Part shown: piece after piece, positions 5,896 to 53,837 of the stretch
How the letters are laid out: each line of letters opens with the position of its first letter
Numbering within the stretch: the first letter of the stretch is position 1
Assembly (NCBI GenBank): GCA_018062205.1
Contig: JAGOSP010000001.1
Span: 34,810 to 98,809 of the forward strand
Origin: Candidatus Moraniibacteriota bacterium
GTDB taxonomy: Bacteria; Patescibacteriota; Minisyncoccia; Moranbacterales; UBA1568
DNA: 64,000 nt
Direction: 5' to 3'
Notes under the pieces: model-generated
Seen by the model: only the letters and a program-made list of their open reading frames with translations
Databases searched by the model: none
Told to the model about the DNA's origin: nothing
Translations under genes and position numbers: made by a program

Positions 5896-6558
5896 ATGGA
5901 GAGTACCAATCAGATGGCTGTTTTGTTGAGCGAGTTTTTGCGTGCAATAGAGGGGCTTCCTCCTCATATCAAGGATGCGTGGGTTCGGAATCCTGTTGAG
6001 TTGTACGACTCCCTGACGGACACCTTGGACCCGCTCAAATGCGGGCGTCGTATGATTCCAATGCGCTCCAGCGGGGAACGGTCGGCACCCAATCACTTGG
6101 GGCTGTATGAGCATGACCCTCTTGGCGGAGAAATATATACTGTCGGGAGATTTTCGCTGATAAATCAAATAACAATCGGCATCATTAGCCCCCGATTGTT
6201 TCTTTCGGAGGTAAGGGTAACTCAGGAATTGGTACGTGGCGTAGCGGCGAGATGGGGATGGATTGCTCCACCAGTTGAGACGGGGCAGTTGATCGCGGAG
6301 AATCTTTCGCCACAGATACTAGAGCTTCTCGGGCTTCAATCGGTGCTCGTGATGCATGACCCTGTAGTGCAGAGCGATGGTTTCACAGAAACACCGATGC
6401 TTCTCTGGTTGCGACGGGCTTGCCCTTCTGACGGCTCGGAAGCAGAGGCGGATATGCCTGACGAGAGCTGTGCGGATGCGTATCCCCTGTATCAGTCTGG
6501 GAACACGCACCTTCCCGATTATGCGGCTTTCCTTTTCGTGGTTCCGGACGGGGTATAA
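5896..6558 (+). CDS. Hypothetical protein (220 aa) with no recognisable domain, GC-richer than its neighbours
   Basis: Long ORF on the strand opposite the two suf operons. GGAGGG purine-rich stretch upstream of the ATG. No motif recognised. Confidence 0.4.
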   Translation: MESTNQMAVLLSEFLRAIEGLPPHIKDAWVRNPVELYDSLTDTLDPLKCGRRMIPMRSSGERSAPNHLGLYEHDPLGGEIYTVGRFSLINQITIGIISPRLFLSEVRVTQELVRGVAARWGWIAPPVETGQLIAENLSPQILELLGLQSVLVMHDPVVQSDGFTETPMLLWLRRACPSDGSEAEADMPDESCADAYPLYQSGNTHLPDYAAFLFVVPDGV

Positions 6559-19256: not shown

Positions 19257-19282
19257 GAGAACTGTATTTAAAAACAAAATTG

Positions 19283-19715
19283 TGGAGCTGATGGGTATTG
19301 CACCCATGTCCAGTCATATTCCTTCAAAATAGTCTACAAGCATAGTCCGCTGTGGATTCCTTCTCTCATAAACAGCAGACAAAAGAGGAGAGAAGACGAG
19401 TCTTTCGCAAAAGGAAACCGAAGAAGAAAAACAAGAAGAAAGTCCTCGGACCTTCTCGAAGTATAGCACCGGTGTTTCTCTATCGAGAATTGAGAGACCG
19501 ATGGTCCAGCCTAGCCGAGTAAGCAACACCGAAGTGTGGCTCCAAGGGGATTAGGCATGGGCGAAAGCGTAAGACGGAGTAAACGCCGAAGCGAGTGCCG
19601 ACTTGGCCTTTGAGATAAAGTTTGCACTTATCAGTTGATGGAAGTGTTTGCGATCGTACCATCATGATCGGCTTGCATATTTTGAAAGTACGTCCTGTCG
19701 AATCGAGACAGCCCC
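19283..19715 (-). ncRNA. ssrA: Transfer-messenger RNA (tmRNA, ssrA)
   Basis: On the minus strand the 5' end reads GGGGCTGTCTCGATTCGACAGG, matching the tmRNA consensus GGGGCUG...GAUUCGAC. The 3' end reads GGACATGGGTGCAATACCCATCAGCTCCA, a T-arm plus an acceptor 3' strand CAGCTCC. That strand pairs with the 5' GGGGCTG including the G3:U70 wobble used for alanine charging. The gene lies immediately downstream of smpB. CCA is not encoded; the gene reads ACA. Confidence 0.8.
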
Positions 19716-46501: not shown

Positions 46502-46828
46502 ATGCCGCTTCCTCTGGAACAATTGGAGCCGCTCGCGCGCTGTCCGGTGTGCAATAAGAAGCATCGTCGTGGGTTGCGTATGCTCCCAATTGCCGAAGAA
46601 GAGAAACGTACGATGTTGCATCTGACTTGCGAACACTGCGGTGGGAAGACATTGGTAGCAATATCAGTGACGCAATTTGGGATGGTGAGTCTTGGTGTTC
46701 TGACCGATCTCGATCAATCAGAAGTCAAACAAATTTTCTCTTCCGAACCAATCTCGGCGAATCAGGTTATTGACGCACATCAGTTTTTCAAGCAATACCA
46801 GGGTGGTGTTGAGGAATTGATTGGGTAG
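46502..46828 (+). CDS. Hypothetical zinc-ribbon protein (108 aa)
   Basis: CPVCNKKH ... CEHCGG, two CxxC pairs. Confidence 0.45.
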   Translation: MPLPLEQLEPLARCPVCNKKHRRGLRMLPIAEEEKRTMLHLTCEHCGGKTLVAISVTQFGMVSLGVLTDLDQSEVKQIFSSEPISANQVIDAHQFFKQYQGGVEELIG

Positions 46829-46874: not shown

Positions 46875-47552
46875 ATGGCCGACACACTTTCTCTCTCAGT
46901 GCTTCCTCGTGAAGCAGCTGGAAAAAATCTGAATAGCTCCCGGAAGTCTGGTTTGATTCCAGCGGTGTTGTACGGGCGCGGTATTTCACCGAAGATGTTT
47001 TGGGTAAATATAATTGAGTTCGGTAAAGTTTTGCACGTGACTGGTGAGAGCACAATTTTTTCTTTGGTTGCCGGAAAGAGTGCTGCTCTTAATGTGTTGG
47101 TACATGATGTTCAATTGGATCCAATCTCAAATCGTGTCTCGCATGTAGATTTCTATCAGGTCGATATGGATGAAGAATTGGAAACTGATATTCCACTCGA
47201 ATTCATCGGTGAGGCGCCTGCAGTTCGTGAATTAGGGGGTATCCTCGTGAAGACGCTTGAGAGTATCGGAGTTCGTTGTTTGCCAAAAAATCTCCCACAT
47301 TCTATTGCAGTCGATATTTCAACTCTGGTGACTTTCGATGATCAGATAAAGGTTTCAGATCTCGCTCTTGGTGAGACGATTGAAATCATGACAGATGTCG
47401 ATACGGTACTTGCTTTGGTTGAGGCTCCGCGTACAGATGCCGATATGGCGGCCCTTGAAGTGAAAGCCGAAATGGACGTGACCAAGGTCGCTGGTGTCGT
47501 GAAAGAATCCGCTCCAGCAGTTGAGGTTGATAAGAAGGACAAGAAGAAATAG
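46875..47552 (+). CDS. rplY: 50S ribosomal protein L25 / general stress protein Ctc
   Basis: L25 beta-barrel N-terminal domain (LSVLPREAAGKNLNSSRKSGLIPAVLYG) plus a Ctc C-terminal domain. 225 aa. Confidence 0.88.
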   Translation: MADTLSLSVLPREAAGKNLNSSRKSGLIPAVLYGRGISPKMFWVNIIEFGKVLHVTGESTIFSLVAGKSAALNVLVHDVQLDPISNRVSHVDFYQVDMDEELETDIPLEFIGEAPAVRELGGILVKTLESIGVRCLPKNLPHSIAVDISTLVTFDDQIKVSDLALGETIEIMTDVDTVLALVEAPRTDADMAALEVKAEMDVTKVAGVVKESAPAVEVDKKDKKK

Positions 47553-47580
47553 ACTAACTTACTCAAAAAAACACAAAAAA

Positions 47581-47608
47581 CCATCCGTAAGAACGGATGG
47601 TTTTTTTA
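47581..47608 (+). terminator. Intrinsic terminator (AACCATCCGT-aaga-ACGGATGGTT followed by a T-run)
   Basis: 10-bp perfect stem followed by TTTTTTT, just after rplY. Confidence 0.7.
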
Positions 47609-47636
47609 TTGAGCTGCTGATCCTCTTAAAAAACTC

Positions 47637-47665
47637 TTGACTTTATAAAATAAGCGTGATATTAT
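47637..47665 (+). promoter_or_regulatory. Sigma70-like promoter TTGACT, 17-nt spacer, TATTAT for the orphan gene
   Basis: Seen directly. Followed by a UTR of about 110 nt containing the palindrome CAGAGTGCTCTG and an AGAGGAGGG Shine-Dalgarno. Confidence 0.5.
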
Positions 47666-47780
47666 ATTTTTTTCATACTAAGAGTGTATGATACAGAGTG
47701 CTCTGTTGAGACAGATTTAAAAAATAAGTAAATTCAAGAAAGAGGATGTAGAAAATTTCACTGAAAGAGGAGGGCTCGAT

Positions 47781-48227
47781 ATGGTATTTGTGAATGATCT
47801 TCCAGAAGAGGTTTTAGTGGCCATGAACGATCCTCACGCGGTCAATCTCGGCATAGCAACAAGTTTTGCTTGGTGGGGACCTCCAACGTCTTCACGTTGG
47901 TTCCATCCGGGAATAGATCTGATACGCAGACATATACCGGTTGCTGTTGTTGTGGAGACTCTGAATACGTATGACAGTTCAAAAAAACTCAGACGATCTC
48001 CATTGCAGGTGACCAGCTGGGCGCAGTTCAAGGCAGGAACAACGAAAAAAAGACTGTACCCGGTTTTCGGAGAACTTCTCTGCTATCTCGCGCAAACATT
48101 GGGAAGGAAGATTTATGTCACCCATGTGCAAGGAGCTGGTTCTCCTAAGTCATTTCTGGCGGACCGGGTATTTTGCTATCTTCCTGATGGGGCGGAGGAA
48201 ATTATTTTTCGTGCCCCTGATCAATAA
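47781..48227 (+). CDS. Hypothetical protein (148 aa), orphan transcription unit
   Basis: Strong Shine-Dalgarno AGAGGAGGG, its own promoter and terminator, no recognisable motif. GC-richer than the flanks. Confidence 0.45.
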   Translation: MVFVNDLPEEVLVAMNDPHAVNLGIATSFAWWGPPTSSRWFHPGIDLIRRHIPVAVVVETLNTYDSSKKLRRSPLQVTSWAQFKAGTTKKRLYPVFGELLCYLAQTLGRKIYVTHVQGAGSPKSFLADRVFCYLPDGAEEIIFRAPDQ

Positions 48228-48261
48228 AAAGGTTGTCTCAAAAAAGAAGACCTCCTGGGCA

Positions 48262-48298
48262 TGTCCACTGGCTAGCATAGCAATGCGCGCCAGTTTTT
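48262..48298 (+). terminator. Intrinsic terminator (CTGGC...GCCAG followed by T8)
   Basis: Hairpin followed by tttttttt, downstream of the orphan gene. Confidence 0.5.
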
Positions 48299-48370
48299 TT
48301 TATCACAAAATGAGATGCCTTTTGTTTAAAAAGAGAGTGCACTTCAAGATTGAATCTACAGCTACAAACA

Positions 48371-48399
48371 TTGACAGAAATTATAATATACGCTATAAT
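48371..48399 (+). promoter_or_regulatory. Perfect-consensus sigma70 promoter TTGACA, 17-nt spacer, TATAAT
   Basis: TTGACA at 48371-48376 and TATAAT at 48394-48399, with an exact 17-nt spacer. Confidence 0.65.
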
Positions 48400-48406
48400 A
48401 GATATT

Positions 48407-48568
48407 CAAGAAAGTGGATTCAGATTTCTGCCCGAGGGTCCGATGGAGGAACCCTCCTACCTCCCAAGGCTTAATTGTGGGAAAGACAGCTTGCTGTTTG
48501 ACACACGCCTTCCGGGCGGAAATCCGAATCTACTTGAAAAAAACTGTCCGCAAAAGGACGGTTTTTTT
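48407..48568 (+). ncRNA. Unassigned small structured RNA of about 160 nt, delimited by a consensus promoter and an intrinsic terminator (candidate 6S-like or novel sRNA)
   Basis: An 18-bp terminal helix is possible between 48416-48434 (GGATTCAGATTTCTGCCCG) and 48513-48530 (CGGGCGGAAATCCGAATC). Internal hairpin GAGGGT...ACCCTC. Terminator CTGTCC-GCAAAA-GGACGG followed by T7 at 48544-48568. No plus-strand CDS downstream. Confidence 0.5.
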
Positions 48569-48596
48569 GTTGCCTTTTTTTATGCGCGTTTCGCAG

Positions 48597-49190
48597 TCAA
48601 GAGATTCTTTGCGAAGTACCCAGTTGTCCAGAAGAAATTTTGGCGATAAGACCGGGGAGGGAGGAGAAGAGAGACTCAAGAAGGATTCTTTCGGCGGCTG
48701 GAAATTTTTCGAGAACGTAATCATGAGTTGATTGGCAGGTAGACGGCGCGATATTTGGTGATTGTGACGATGTTAATGGTCGACCAATACCTAGGCGAAT
48801 ACGGAAAAAATCTTGAGTACCCAATTGGTCGATAATATTTTGGACACCATTGTGTCCTGCGGCACGGGAAGACGCAGTGGTTTTTGTGAGACCAGGGGCG
48901 ATATCAAGGTCATCGTGAAGGACAATGATATCGTTTGGAGTTAATTTGTAGTACTGCATGAGCAAATGGACAGTTTTTCCGGATTGGTTCATGAAGGTAT
49001 TTGGCTTGATAAGCAAATACTTTTCTCCATGGACAGTCCCGATGGACATCTCGGCATGGAAACGGCTTTCTTGATGAAAATTTTCAAATTTGAAGTGTTC
49101 GCAAAGGAAATCAAGTGCCCGAAAACCAGCGTTATGACGTGTTTGCAAATATTGTTTGCCCGGATTTCCAAGACCAATAATGAGTTTCAT
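48597..49190 (-). CDS. pth: Peptidyl-tRNA hydrolase
   Basis: MKLIIGLGNPGKQYLQTRHNAGFRALDFL is the canonical Pth N-terminus, with catalytic His in HNAGF. Confidence 0.92.
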   Translation of the reverse strand: MKLIIGLGNPGKQYLQTRHNAGFRALDFLCEHFKFENFHQESRFHAEMSIGTVHGEKYLLIKPNTFMNQSGKTVHLLMQYYKLTPNDIIVLHDDLDIAPGLTKTTASSRAAGHNGVQNIIDQLGTQDFFRIRLGIGRPLTSSQSPNIAPSTCQSTHDYVLEKFPAAERILLESLFSSLPGLIAKISSGQLGTSQRIS

Positions 49191-49220
49191 AGTGTAGGAA
49201 ATCTAGTATCAAGAAGATGA

Positions 49221-50834
49221 TTAGCGTTTTTTCTTTTTCTTTGGGGGTTCTTGAGGAGGGAGAATCTCACTGGTTATTTCTTCGGGCGTAGCACCTATTT
49301 CTCCAAGAAACGCACTTTCCTCCATGTCCTCACCAATGGTAAGAATGAAATCGGGTTTCGGACTTGGTAAACGATCACTGGAAGCGGAAGACGAATTTGT
49401 TTGATTGAGATTAAAACGAGAGAGGATCGCATTGTAGCTGTAGAGTTTTTGATCCTGAACACGCTCTTCAATGGTACTGTGTTTTGGGGTATCTTCCAAG
49501 TTTGTAGAAATGGAAACTTTTTCAAAACCAAGTTCATCGATGAGGAACTGTTTTAGGGTATTAGCGAGCGTGTTTTGGTCAGGTGAACTTCGGATGAGAA
49601 GGGAAGCGCGTTCGTTGACAATCCGCATTCGTTCTTGCTGGAGACTTTCGATGGAGAAAATTTGGTGTGCAAGTGAATGTATTTCTTTCCAATTTCCAGT
49701 TCGTGGTAAAAGAATAAAAGCATTGCCGTTTGATGTTGGAACATGTGAAACTCGGAGCAGACTCTCTTTTTTCCAGGCATCAATAACAACAGTAGTGATA
49801 TTTTTTGTATCCAGCGTACGAATAAGCAAAAGAAAACTTTCTATTTCATCGGTGGTGATGTCAGTTTTGATACTAGCTCCAAGCGCATCAAGAAAGTGAG
49901 AGAGAGTGAAGATATTAAGAAAAGTGCCGGTAGAGAACACTTTATCTCGTACGGCTTGCATGACTTGCTGCTGGCGTTTTGCTCGACCGAAATCACCCTC
50001 TGGATCGGAATGTCGCTCCCGAACGTATTTAAGGGCCGTGGCCCCATCAAGTTTTTGCCAACCTTTCTTTATCTCAAAGGTTTCATAGCTGTAATTTTTT
50101 CCTGGATAACGAGTATCGAGAATGTCTCGTTGTACATCGACTGAAATACCGCCAAGAGCATCAATTGTTTTTTCAAATCCGTCAAAATCAACGATGATGG
50201 AGTAGTGGATTGGTTCGCCAGAAATTTTTTCTACCGTTTCTCGGAGCAGAGAAATGCCATCCTGAGTATCAAGTCCAATTTGATAAATAGCGTTGATTTT
50301 TGTGTAATTAGTACCTTGACCGATGGGTACATACAAATCGCGTGGAAATGAAAGGAGCGCTACTTGATGGGTTTTCGTATCAATGCTGGCGAGCATTATT
50401 GTGTCAGTAAGATTTTTCCCCGGGTAGTGTTCGCCGGCGCGTCCGAGAAGGAGTATGTTGATACGATTTCTATCTGTCTGTTGTAAGGGGGTGCGTTTTG
50501 AGAAAAGGGCGCGAGCAGCATCTGTTATTTCAAGAAAAAACGAGCTATCGGTTTGACTCTCAAAAGAGAGAGTTTTGCTAATATGCGCAACCTTAGCAAA
50601 GAGAAAGAATGCCCATCCGAGGAATAGTATGCCGATGATAATGCCCGTATGGAGGAATATTCGGCGGTATCGATGATGTCTTATCGGATGATTATCTGAT
50701 TTTTTGTATAAGGAAGGTTCTTTTTTAGGGAGGAAAACTGGTTCTGAGCCAAGATCAAGAGGTTGCCGATTGGGAGTCGAAGATATCTTTTTGCGAAGAG
50801 GAGGGTGTGTCTTTTTTGGCTGGAGGCTGTCCAT
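49221..50834 (-). CDS. LCP-family (LytR-CpsA-Psr) cell-envelope phosphotransferase
   Basis: NILLLGRAGEHYPGKNLTDTIMLASIDTKTHQVALLSFPRDLYV is the LCP core, preceded by a TM helix and a basic N-terminus. Confidence 0.8.
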   Translation of the reverse strand: MDSLQPKKTHPPLRKKISSTPNRQPLDLGSEPVFLPKKEPSLYKKSDNHPIRHHRYRRIFLHTGIIIGILFLGWAFFLFAKVAHISKTLSFESQTDSSFFLEITDAARALFSKRTPLQQTDRNRINILLLGRAGEHYPGKNLTDTIMLASIDTKTHQVALLSFPRDLYVPIGQGTNYTKINAIYQIGLDTQDGISLLRETVEKISGEPIHYSIIVDFDGFEKTIDALGGISVDVQRDILDTRYPGKNYSYETFEIKKGWQKLDGATALKYVRERHSDPEGDFGRAKRQQQVMQAVRDKVFSTGTFLNIFTLSHFLDALGASIKTDITTDEIESFLLLIRTLDTKNITTVVIDAWKKESLLRVSHVPTSNGNAFILLPRTGNWKEIHSLAHQIFSIESLQQERMRIVNERASLLIRSSPDQNTLANTLKQFLIDELGFEKVSISTNLEDTPKHSTIEERVQDQKLYSYNAILSRFNLNQTNSSSASSDRLPSPKPDFILTIGEDMEESAFLGEIGATPEEITSEILPPQEPPKKKKKR

Positions 50835-51640: not shown

Positions 51641-53086
51641 TTGAAGAAAGATTTTTCCGAAGGGGATGATTCAATAGAAACTCGTAAATCAGATAAATCA
51701 AGGAATATGGCAAAGACTACAGTGGCGAAATCAACAGGGAAAACAGCGGTAAGCCTGAAAACAACTAAAAAATCAGACAAGCCGCTAAAGGGAGAGGAAG
51801 AGATTCTTCTTCAGGCGCTTCGTGGGATGCGCGATATCTTGCCAGATGAACAGCCTTATTGGGAGCGAGTACGTCGAGTATTGACGCATGCGCAGCAAGA
51901 ATATGGTTTTCAACGTATTGATTTACCCATGGTTGAGTTTTCACATTTGTATCTTCGCACTATCGGAGAGGGCACAGACATTGTAGACAAAGAAATATAT
52001 ACTTTTACAACCCGGGGTGGTGACAAAGTAGCTCTTCGTCCAGAAATGACGGCTGGACTTTGCCGGGCGTATATTCAGCATGGGATGTCTGTTTTGACGA
52101 AGCCGGTAAAGCTGTTTTCTCTTGGATCATTGTTTCGATATGATCGTCCTCAGGAAGGACGCTATCGTGAGCACACACAAGCAAATTTTGATATGTTTGG
52201 TGAAGAAGATCCAATTTTAGATGCTCAGACTCTTCAGCTTGCATACCGGGTAGTTCGCGAGCTTGGTTTAAAGCATATTGAATTTCAGGTAAACAGTATC
52301 GGTACACCAGAGTCGCGAAAGGATTATGAAAAAGCATTATTGCGTTATCTTGAATCACAAAAGCATCGGCTTTGTCAGAATTGTCGAGAACGTTTTGAAA
52401 ATAGTCCTATGCGTATTCTTGATTGTAAAGAAGACAAATGTATCCAGTTGACGGCGCATGCTCCGCAATCAGTGGACTATCTTGACCAGGAATCACGAGA
52501 TCATTTTAAGCGATTGCTTGAGTATTTAGATGAATTAGAATTGCCGTATGTGATTAATTCTCGATTAGTACGAGGGCTTGATTATTATACCCGAACTGTT
52601 TTTGAGATTTGGTCGAGTGATCAGGAAGGAAAAAAGTATTCACTTGGTGGAGGAGGAAGATACGATCGTCTCGTACAAATGTTGGGCGGCGAATCGACTC
52701 CAGCCATTGGATTCGGTCTTGGCATTGATCGTGTTGTACTTGAGATGAAACGGACTCAGGTAAAACCCTATGAGATGCCAAAGCCAAAAGTGTTTCTTGC
52801 GCAACTCGGTGATTTGGCAAAAAAGAAGAGTTTGCGTATTTTTGCTGACCTCGAAAAAAATGGGGTATTGCTTGCGGAGAGTTTTGGACGAGGAAGTTTG
52901 AAATCGCAGATGCGCGTCGCAAATCGTATTGGGGCTGAGGTGACTGTGATCATTGGTCAGAAAGAGGCGCTGGATGAGACAGCTATCGTAAAGGATATGA
53001 TTTCTGGTACTCAAGAAACAGTGACACAAGAGCGTCTTGTAGATGCAGTGAAGAAAATTCTCAAGGCAAATCAAGCACTGATCTAG
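51641..53086 (+). CDS. hisS: Histidine--tRNA ligase (with an N-terminal Lys-rich extension; start uncertain)
   Basis: LRGMRDILP motif 1 region, class II aaRS motifs, C-terminal anticodon-binding domain. A possible alternative start lies at 51707. Confidence 0.88.
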   Translation: MKKDFSEGDDSIETRKSDKSRNMAKTTVAKSTGKTAVSLKTTKKSDKPLKGEEEILLQALRGMRDILPDEQPYWERVRRVLTHAQQEYGFQRIDLPMVEFSHLYLRTIGEGTDIVDKEIYTFTTRGGDKVALRPEMTAGLCRAYIQHGMSVLTKPVKLFSLGSLFRYDRPQEGRYREHTQANFDMFGEEDPILDAQTLQLAYRVVRELGLKHIEFQVNSIGTPESRKDYEKALLRYLESQKHRLCQNCRERFENSPMRILDCKEDKCIQLTAHAPQSVDYLDQESRDHFKRLLEYLDELELPYVINSRLVRGLDYYTRTVFEIWSSDQEGKKYSLGGGGRYDRLVQMLGGESTPAIGFGLGIDRVVLEMKRTQVKPYEMPKPKVFLAQLGDLAKKKSLRIFADLEKNGVLLAESFGRGSLKSQMRVANRIGAEVTVIIGQKEALDETAIVKDMISGTQETVTQERLVDAVKKILKANQALI

Positions 53087-53463: not shown

Positions 53464-53582
53464 AAGCTTTTTTAGCTATCAAAGTGCACCTGTTGTATCG
53501 TGAAAAAGGGAGTATTCGTGAGACAACAAGTGCACCTGGATTCATTTCAAGGTTGTTCTCTAGAGAAAGGAGGTTGGGAAAT

Positions 53583-53837
53583 ATGATACAAGTAAAACGA
53601 AAAGAACGCGAAACTGCCGAAGGTCTTATCCGGCGTTTTTCTCGCCGTGTCCAACAAAGCGGCGTTCTTCGTCGAGTCCGAAAGCTCCGTTTTCGTCAAG
53701 GAGAAAAGAGTAAAGATGAACGACGAAATGAAGCGCTCTATAAAGTGAAAATACGCAAAGAGATAGATCGTCTGAAAAAAATGGGTAAATTTGACGAGAA
53801 TGCGCTTCAAGAAATTAAGAAGCGACTGAACTCTTAG
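53583..53837 (+). CDS. rpsU: 30S ribosomal protein S21
   Basis: AAGGAGGT Shine-Dalgarno 7 nt upstream. MIQVKRKERETAEGLIRRFSRRVQQSGVLRRVRKLRFRQGEKSKDERRNEA fits the S21 pattern. Confidence 0.88.
   Translation: MIQVKRKERETAEGLIRRFSRRVQQSGVLRRVRKLRFRQGEKSKDERRNEALYKVKIRKEIDRLKKMGKFDENALQEIKKRLNS

Follow-up and report, generated by a model that had tools for sequence, protein, structure and literature searches.

The C-rich hairpin loops of the actinobacterial 6C/B11 small RNAs (sRNAs) pair with G-rich or Shine-Dalgarno (SD)-like sites in mRNAs (PMC12395582), and the C-rich motifs of the UCCC sRNAs of Staphylococcus aureus pair with G-rich or SD sites (reviewed in PMC9266662). OLE RNA carries a CCUCCU mimic of the anti-Shine-Dalgarno sequence (ASD) which is bound by the ribosomal protein bS21, and mutations in this mimic abolish binding (PMC12054373). 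In Flavobacteria, bS21, bS18 and bS6 sequester the ASD of the ribosome, and rpsU, the gene of bS21, is the only ribosomal gene led by an SD and is autoregulated through it (PMC7797042, PMC9976891). Here, we analyzed a stretch of 64,000 nucleotides of contig JAGOSP010000001.1 from a Candidatus Moraniibacteriota bacterium (called the window throughout, with positions counted from its first letter) and identify at 48406-48568 on the plus strand, to judge from the sequence and its homologs, a gene for a stand-alone, sigma-70-transcribed and structured non-coding RNA which presents a CCUCCU motif in a hairpin loop. By the same evidence the RNA constitutes a new family, absent from Rfam 15 and spread through several lineages of the Candidate Phyla Radiation (CPR, Patescibacteria).

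The gene is preceded by a sigma-70 promoter that matches the consensus at 12 of 12 positions (TTGACA, 17-nt spacer, TATAAT; 48371-48399) and is the sole perfect site within 47500-49500, in agreement with the initial annotation of this stretch, which had been made from the letters alone. The spacing of the promoter places the probable transcription start at about 48406-48408, and from its quality we infer strong expression of the RNA, which the initial annotation had called highly transcribed. The GC stem with a T7 run that had been read as a terminator was likewise found, as an A7-stem-T7 element of 13 pairs at 48537-48568; with this layout it is predicted to be bidirectional and common to the RNA gene and the convergent pth gene (48597-49190, minus strand, stop codon ending at 48597). 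Promoter and terminator thus bracket a predicted transcript of about 160 nt. Upstream lies rplY (L25; 46875-47552). As had been claimed, no plus-strand coding gene follows the RNA in the window: pth and, beyond it, a LytR/CpsA/Psr gene (49221-50834) are both encoded on the minus strand and were both confirmed by Pfam.

Folding of 48407-48568, as suggested in the initial annotation, gave -74.3 kcal/mol compared to -42.6 ± 3.9 kcal/mol for 200 dinucleotide shuffles, none of which was as stable (z = -8.2). The consensus structure of the family is a three-way junction formed by a closing helix P1 of about 26 modelled pairs, a hairpin P2 with a stem of 6-10 bp and a loop of 10-14 nt, a purine-rich linker J2/3 and a hairpin P3 with an internal loop. 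On its 3' side (J3/1), the junction has 0-6 nt across the family and 0 in the window. A terminal helix with one mismatch and one wobble had been noticed before; both the A48422/C48525 mismatch and the U48429.G48518 wobble are seen in P1, which turned out to be longer than claimed (48412-48439 with 48507-48535), the earlier coordinates of its outer end being about one base off. The elements of the gene are the following:

48371-48376, plus strand: -35 hexamer TTGACA of the 12/12 promoter with 17-nt spacer; a TTGACA-like -35 is aligned in close relatives.

48394-48399, plus strand: -10 hexamer TATAAT of the same promoter match, also aligned in close relatives.

48412-48439, plus strand: 5' strand of P1, from the RNAalifold consensus and model columns mapped to the window; 26 of 26 pairs show compensatory double changes and 91.9% of cells pair.

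48444-48465, plus strand: P2 hairpin with stem UGGAGG/CCUCCC and loop AACCCUCCUA at 48450-48459; all six stem pairs covary and 96.9% of cells pair.

48453-48458, plus strand: CCUCCU, the ASD-like motif, each position being 94-98% conserved over the 54 distinct homologs.

48466-48476, plus strand: linker J2/3, AAGGCUUAAUU, which holds a U (83%) and an A (94%), the only other conserved bases.

48477-48506, plus strand: P3 hairpin with internal loop and CUUG apical loop; 10 of 10 pairs covary and 92-95% of cells pair, the shape being conserved and the sequence variable.

48507-48535, plus strand: 3' strand of P1, from the RNAalifold consensus, covariation and model mapping.

48537-48568, both strands: predicted bidirectional intrinsic terminator (A7-stem-T7), the end of both the plus-strand RNA and the minus-strand pth.

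In blastn and nhmmer searches, six close relatives showed the RNA downstream of pth, and the promoter aligned as well. A covariance model built from close relatives (R1) detected 11 distant copies, and a second one (R2), for which just the distant copies were used, recovered the window copy and found the RNA in 45 of 80 genome loci and in 16 metagenome loci, the latter having been fetched around the neighbouring HisRS gene. The covariance models yielded 55 homologs in total, 54 of them distinct. Their hosts include Moranbacteria, Doudnabacteria, Candidatus Elulimicrobium and unclassified Parcubacteria and Patescibacteria. The protein relatives of Pth all belong to Patescibacteria, mostly Moranbacteria, and an identical Pth protein in the same gene order is present in GCA_017991955.1 and in a JGI contig. 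Every RNA match lies on the strand opposite pth, 0-3 kb past the pth 3' end. We rejected universality of the RNA at this locus, as many relatives have rplY, a terminator and pth without a CCUCCU element between them.

In the alignment of the 54 distinct sequences (A5), all 44 modelled pairs change on both sides. Standard pairs occupy 91.8% of the cells compared to 37.6-49.2% if the partners are slid by one to three columns, and the covariation score is 0.95 versus 0.27 after shuffling, with the same outcome on smaller sets; A5 was fitted to the covariance model, which favours pairing, but the margin is very wide, and the same shape emerges when sequences are folded singly and independently. 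The excess of G.U cells (272) over A.C cells (29) fixes the strand of the RNA and excludes the pth strand. The sequence of P3 is free to vary: no position is conserved at 70% or more, and the apical loops include CUUG, AUAAUU, UUCG and others. An H-type pseudoknot between GAGGGU at 48434-48439 and the ACCCUC of the P2 loop appeared plausible in seven close sequences and was dropped, since the partner with which the 5' element covaries in distant homologs is the 3' strand of P1 (e.g. GGAAGU/ACUUUC in L040).

The gene is independent in its transcription signals as well. With the criterion of a TTGACA-like -35 with at most one mismatch, a spacer of 16-18 nt and a TAnnnT -10, 47 of 53 homologs have their own promoter in the 110 nt upstream, and the control windows have none. 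A run of five or more T within 70 nt downstream is present in 40 of 55 homologs, often behind a separate hairpin, and a separate hairpin terminator follows the RNA in the window and in at least 22 of the 55. The 5' leader before P1 varies in length, that of the window being among the shortest, and in some lineages P1 adjoins the pth stop codon. Coding of a small protein was ruled out by loss of frame and even mod-3 lengths: a stop-free frame on the RNA strand exists in only 23 of 55 homologs, and the core lengths are distributed 18/19/18 over the three residues modulo 3. The overlapping open reading frames (ORFs) 48350-48649 and 48414-48731 have no Pfam match and no frame conservation in the homologs, in line with the earlier judgement that they are not protein-like. 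The view that the stretch encodes a stand-alone RNA and neither a 5' leader nor a protein is therefore borne out by 55 homologs with compensatory changes at every modelled pair, conserved promoters and no conserved small protein in the relatives; conservation, covariation and promoters in dozens of genomes confirm, at the level of sequence comparison, that the RNA is real beyond chance.

At gathering score, Rfam 15 left the RNA body unmatched both in the window and across 17 loci; a search by E-value (E ≤ 10) of three divergent members, i.e. the window copy, L019 and L047, gave no match to it either. The scans returned only terminator look-alikes and plant miRNA hairpins. The initial annotation had excluded SRP RNA, tmRNA and RNase P RNA, which agrees with this outcome, and had left two candidates. 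One of them, a novel sRNA, stood, whereas a 6S-like RNA does not fit the three-way junction, the 3' side of 0-6 nt and the conserved CCUCCU hairpin loop. After the covariance-model scan the identity stays unassigned. The tmRNA of the window is encoded at 19280-19715 on the minus strand (Rfam, 94.6 bits, full length); ARAGORN returned 0 tmRNAs and 0 tRNAs across the 64 kb. A possible phage origin was dismissed, one pattern scan of viral contigs having returned a single chance match inside a large ORF and no covariance-model match. Literature searches on CPR revealed no RNA of this kind.

The sequence conservation of the family is concentrated in the P2 loop. Among the 54 distinct sequences only the six positions of CCUCCU and one A of J2/3 reach 90%. 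The loops, with variants such as ACACCCUCCUUAGU, AUCAUCCCUCCUAUU, CAUCCUCCUUAG and CAACCUCCUUUG next to AACCCUCCUA in the window, resemble the 3' tail of 16S rRNA, GAUCACCUCCUUUCU. CCUCCU is predicted to be unpaired with a median probability of 0.98, compared to 0.30 for the whole RNA. An SD-like 5' strand of P2 (GGAGG or GGGAGG) occurs only in the subgroup of the window (L001-L004, L081, L094 and L111). There, modelling suggests an alternative register of P2 in which GGAGG pairs with CCUCC across a 3-nt loop to form an intramolecular SD:ASD-like duplex; in the window copy this register would free a second CCUCC at 48461-48465.

SD-like sequences are rare in the genomes that carry the RNA. SD-like 4-mers precede 18.5% of the window genes, compared to 12% of random 17-mers, and only 7% of 287 genes in RNA-bearing loci, and the gene leaders of the window are A/U-rich with U at position -1. 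The gene that stands out is rpsU, outside the RNA gene:

53568-53837, plus strand: rpsU (bS21; ORF 53583-53837) with its extended SD GAAAGGAGGU, a candidate target of the RNA.

All 26 sequence matches in the PDB to this protein of 84 amino acids are bS21 (best E = 1.6e-4), although Pfam and NCBIfam miss it, and yqeY follows the gene. The extended SD is kept upstream of rpsU in about 70 related loci (L081-L160, L015, L022, L044, L051, L069 and L071), and no gene family other than rpsU repeatedly shows GGAGG at its start (52 of 52 loci for rpsU). This is the flavobacterial type of signature, there tied to ASD sequestration and autoregulation of bS21; in the literature searched, we found no report of it for CPR. 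The complementarity to the P2 loop suggests a link between rpsU and the RNA.

A scaffold conserved only in shape which exposes one invariant motif of six nucleotides is the pattern of a trans-acting RNA presenting a seed. Our favoured reading, put forward tentatively, is that the exposed ASD-like loop pairs with rare SD-like sites, that of rpsU first, and modulates translation. What we infer about pairing, targets and outcome is as follows. The P2 loop would base-pair in trans with the few GGAGG sites of an SD-poor transcriptome, and this pairing would block or modulate translation of the SD-led mRNAs. The extended SD of rpsU would be the obvious conserved target site, and P1 and the junction would stabilise the RNA and might offer a platform for a protein or RNase III. 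Predicted energies of the duplex between the loop and the translation initiation region are -11.4 kcal/mol for rpsU, -15.8 kcal/mol for ORF148 (47781-48227) and -12.6 kcal/mol for ORF220 (5896-6558), with most genes at about 0; the orphan ORF 47781-48227 and ORF 5896-6558 may be further candidate targets in this genome.

Several small ORFs near copies of the RNA were recorded alongside. The interval from rplY to the RNA gene (47553-48370) is occupied by an insert of about 0.8 kb that carries ORF 47781-48227 (148 amino acids) and is absent from the close relatives L001, L003 and L004. The ORF has a promoter-like site at 47637-47665 and a strong SD, AGAGGAGGGCU, the best predicted loop partner of the window, and the insert also contains, at about 48270-48300, a terminator-like hairpin ending in a T8 run. 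A search of 5.8 billion proteins revealed no homolog of the 148-residue product, and Pfam and NCBIfam gave no match. In L025 (4608-4853, minus strand) and L040 (6424-6777, minus strand), genes for small predicted membrane proteins follow directly downstream on the strand of the RNA. The one in L025, a membrane ORF of 75 amino acids, is led by a strong SD, GAAGGAGGG, to which the RNA loop is complementary, and regulation in cis or by co-transcription is conceivable there.

A number of observations weigh against pairing of the loop with rpsU as the function of the RNA. The match of the rpsU SD GAAAGGAGGU is closer to the canonical 16S tail ACCUCCUUUC (10 bp) than to the RNA loop CCCUCCU (6-7 bp), which indicates that rpsU is tuned to the ribosome and not to the RNA. 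Covariation between loop and rpsU SD is not visible, both cores being invariant and hence uninformative, and the rpsU SD variants GGGAGG and GGGGG are not mirrored in the RNA loops. Of the pth loci, 35 of 81 from genomes and 27 of 43 from metagenomes lack the RNA, while the rpsU SD persists there, indicating that rpsU regulation needs no RNA at the pth locus. In the window subgroup the motif can be masked by the GGAGG of the P2 stem, its predicted probability of being unpaired falling to 0.06-0.48 (0.03-0.48 with L094 and L111), although it is a free loop in the other approximately 45 members. A P1 of about 26 bp on a three-way junction exceeds the needs of a simple seed-presenting sRNA and hints at a protein partner. 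Finally, the loop still resembles 16S rRNA on the 5' side of the SD-pairing core (AUCA...), in keeping with protein mimicry.

The last two points lead to the main alternative, possible if doubtful and drawn by analogy, in which the RNA is a protein-binding ASD decoy or a scaffold of a ribonucleoprotein. The CCUCCU loop would mimic the single-stranded 16S 3' tail and be bound by a protein which normally holds this tail, the prime candidate being bS21, possibly aided by bS18 and bS6; the effect of the RNA would be to buffer free bS21 or to determine what fraction of ribosomes can read SD-led mRNAs, and P1 would serve as a second protein platform. OLE RNA, whose CCUCCU mimic is bound by bS21 (PMC12054373), provides a precedent, although its mimic is a duplex and most CPR members present a loop; the window subgroup may form an intramolecular GGAGG:CCUCC duplex like that of OLE P6. 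The combination of SD-poor genomes with an rpsU led by a perfect extended SD resembles the signature of Flavobacteria, but an ASD held by bS21 in CPR is itself an analogy with that group. The likeness between loop and 16S tail beyond the SD-pairing core (AUCAUCCCUCCU versus GAUCACCUCCU) argues for a decoy, as do the conserved length of P1 and the three-way junction, which suggest a protein scaffold, whereas no protein gene is consistently adjacent to the RNA: its upstream neighbours differ between lineages and comprise L25, FtsX/MacB, the S subunit of a type I restriction-modification system, a kinase, DprA and DsbA. Another binder of the 16S tail, Era, has been lost in most CPR (PMC10582724), for which reason a decoy of Era was dropped from consideration.

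Pairing with SD-like sites in trans and protein decoy both place the RNA in an ASD/bS21 circuit. Some function other than those considered here is unlikely but conceivable. A more specific proposal, quite improbable in our estimate, is that the RNA is a dedicated part of an ASD/bS21 switch: being abundant, it would serve as a decoy for the 16S tail, capturing bS21 or docking on the 30S platform, or would pair with the rpsU SD to form an SD-ASD duplex recognised by bS21, thereby setting the number of 'SD-blind' ribosomes, and would supply the ASD in trans where 16S rRNA lacks CCUCCU.

That the RNA is a ribosome-associated element which supplies or replaces the ASD in trans, for lineages whose 16S rRNA lacks CCUCCU, or which docks on the 30S platform, is very unlikely. 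Some Parcubacteria are without CCUCCU at the 16S 3' end, with detection in Parcubacteria at 48% (PMC9297842), the loop copies the 16S tail almost exactly and the RNA gene lies among translation genes (rplY and pth). Set against this, the rpsU SD fits the canonical 16S tail better, which implies that a 16S ASD is present in these lineages, the RNA has no resemblance to h44 or h45 and it is absent from the locus in many close relatives.

It is most improbable that the element does not act in trans at all, i.e. that it is an elaborate bidirectional terminator or insulator separating convergent genes, or a cis element such as the 3' UTR of pth or the 5' leader of an ORF downstream of it. In favour of this, its place is invariably at the 3' end of pth, several lineages have the P1 3' strand next to the pth stop with no separate terminator, and in L025 the membrane ORF with its SD follows on the same strand. 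Yet the promoter found in 47 of 53 homologs is directed away from pth, the excess of G.U over A.C cells excludes the pth strand, the conserved loop and the covariation of the junction go far beyond the needs of a terminator, and separate hairpin terminators exist in the window and at least 22 of 55 homologs. No same-strand gene follows in the window and in most loci examined, the small ORFs of L025 and L040 being the exceptions. A divergent housekeeping RNA (6S, SRP/4.5S, 5S or Y RNA) overlooked by the Rfam models is largely refuted and scarcely tenable, since a core of about 130 nt in a transcript of about 160 nt, paired ends, a strong promoter, wide distribution and the three-way junction shared with 5S rRNA are outweighed by the failure of the Rfam scans described above, a P3 without conserved sequence, the lack of a 6S bubble, a P1 of 26 pairs versus about 10 in 5S rRNA, absence from many related loci and a conserved CCUCCU loop alien to these classes.

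Some further features of the surrounding region were noted. Directly after rplY, a second bidirectional, A/T-flanked terminator with 14 pairs lies at 47575-47606; in relatives without the insert and without the RNA, such a terminator alone separates rplY and pth. Between gyrB and rplY, a protein of 108 amino acids with two CxxC pairs is encoded at 46502-46828 on the plus strand. It is 74-92% identical in close relatives, where its position is kept, and belongs to no Pfam family, a weak zinc-ribbon match being below the cutoff. The HisRS ORF (51641-53086, plus strand) begins with TTG and a Lys-rich extension of about 55 residues, which is also found in 21 related loci; in these 21 loci an internal ATG after GGUGGAGG coincides with the start of the conserved domain, rendering the true start uncertain.

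CPR bacteria account for a large share of bacterial diversity and have tiny genomes with few known regulators, and to our knowledge essentially no small RNAs have been described in them besides the universal ones. The present family, supported by covariation, resides in SD-poor genomes, and its single conserved element copies the ASD tail of the ribosome; the rpsU-only SD signature that accompanies it has until now been described for Bacteroidetes. Should the RNA prove to have SD-like sites or bS21 as its targets, it would link control by small RNAs to ribosome heterogeneity in a clade with unusual translation, and if the ASD/bS21 switch were true, no earlier small RNA would be known that acts on the mRNA-docking element of the ribosome itself. 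The system offers a testable handle, i.e. one loop, one candidate mRNA and one candidate protein, and the family with its covariance model is useful for the annotation of CPR genomes even under another mechanism.

Compared with the housekeeping RNAs, the family shares general traits and differs in architecture. Like 6S RNA (RF00013), it has a transcript of similar size with the ends paired in a long closing stem, a stand-alone gene and a strong promoter; 6S RNA associates with the sigma-70 RNA polymerase holoenzyme, is a template for pRNA, and has a large central bubble whose two unpaired strands lie between the closing and the terminal stem and imitate an open promoter, with no conserved loop sequence as a trait, and this candidate was rejected because there is no model match and no central bubble, P2 filling the 5' side and the 3' side measuring 0-6 nt. 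Bacterial small SRP (4.5S) RNA (RF00169) is similar in core length and in its long terminal helix, but forms a single hairpin in contrast to the branched fold seen here. Its domain IV is nearly invariant. The CPR RNA has neither the symmetric and asymmetric loops of domain IV nor a GNRA tetraloop, its P3 is variable and Rfam gives no match, and 4.5S RNA was rejected on these grounds. With 5S rRNA (RF00001) only the three-way-junction topology is shared; there is no match at E ≤ 10, P1 has 26 pairs compared to about 10 in helix I, and 5S motifs such as those of loops E and C are lacking.

The rpsU/ASD circuit of Flavobacteriia resembles the situation in CPR in its SD-poor genomes and in an rpsU with an extended SD. 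It differs in that only the ribosome and the rpsU mRNA take part. We know of no small RNA in the flavobacterial circuit. The 6C/B11 RNAs of Actinobacteria are likewise spread over a phylum-level group and stand-alone, with C-rich hairpin loops as the functional part, but they have two short C-run hairpins instead of one CCUCCU loop on a three-way junction with a closing helix of about 26 bp. An unpaired C-rich motif that occludes the SD in trans is also known from Staphylococcus and Bacillus, in RsaE/RoxS and the UCCC-loop sRNAs (PMC9266662); these sRNAs differ in working in SD-rich Firmicutes on many mRNAs and from another architecture, while the target set in CPR would be very small. Neither 6C nor RsaE has sequence or covariance-model similarity to the CPR RNA, so that the resemblance is confined to the mode of action; the feature that defines the C-rich-loop class, an unpaired conserved C-rich motif complementary to the SD, is found in the CCUCCU loop as modelled. 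P6 of OLE RNA is similar in that a non-coding RNA holds an exact CCUCCU copy of the 16S tail inside a conserved structure, and the GGAGG:CCUCC duplex that the window subgroup may form is reminiscent of it. OLE RNA is about 600 nt long, is found in Bacillota, is membrane-associated and has its mimic paired with an SD-like strand, whereas the CPR RNA has about 130 nt and mostly a free loop. By analogy, the RNA described here would work most like the C-rich-loop anti-SD sRNAs or the anti-SD mimic of OLE RNA, with an architecture of its own and in an unusual host context.

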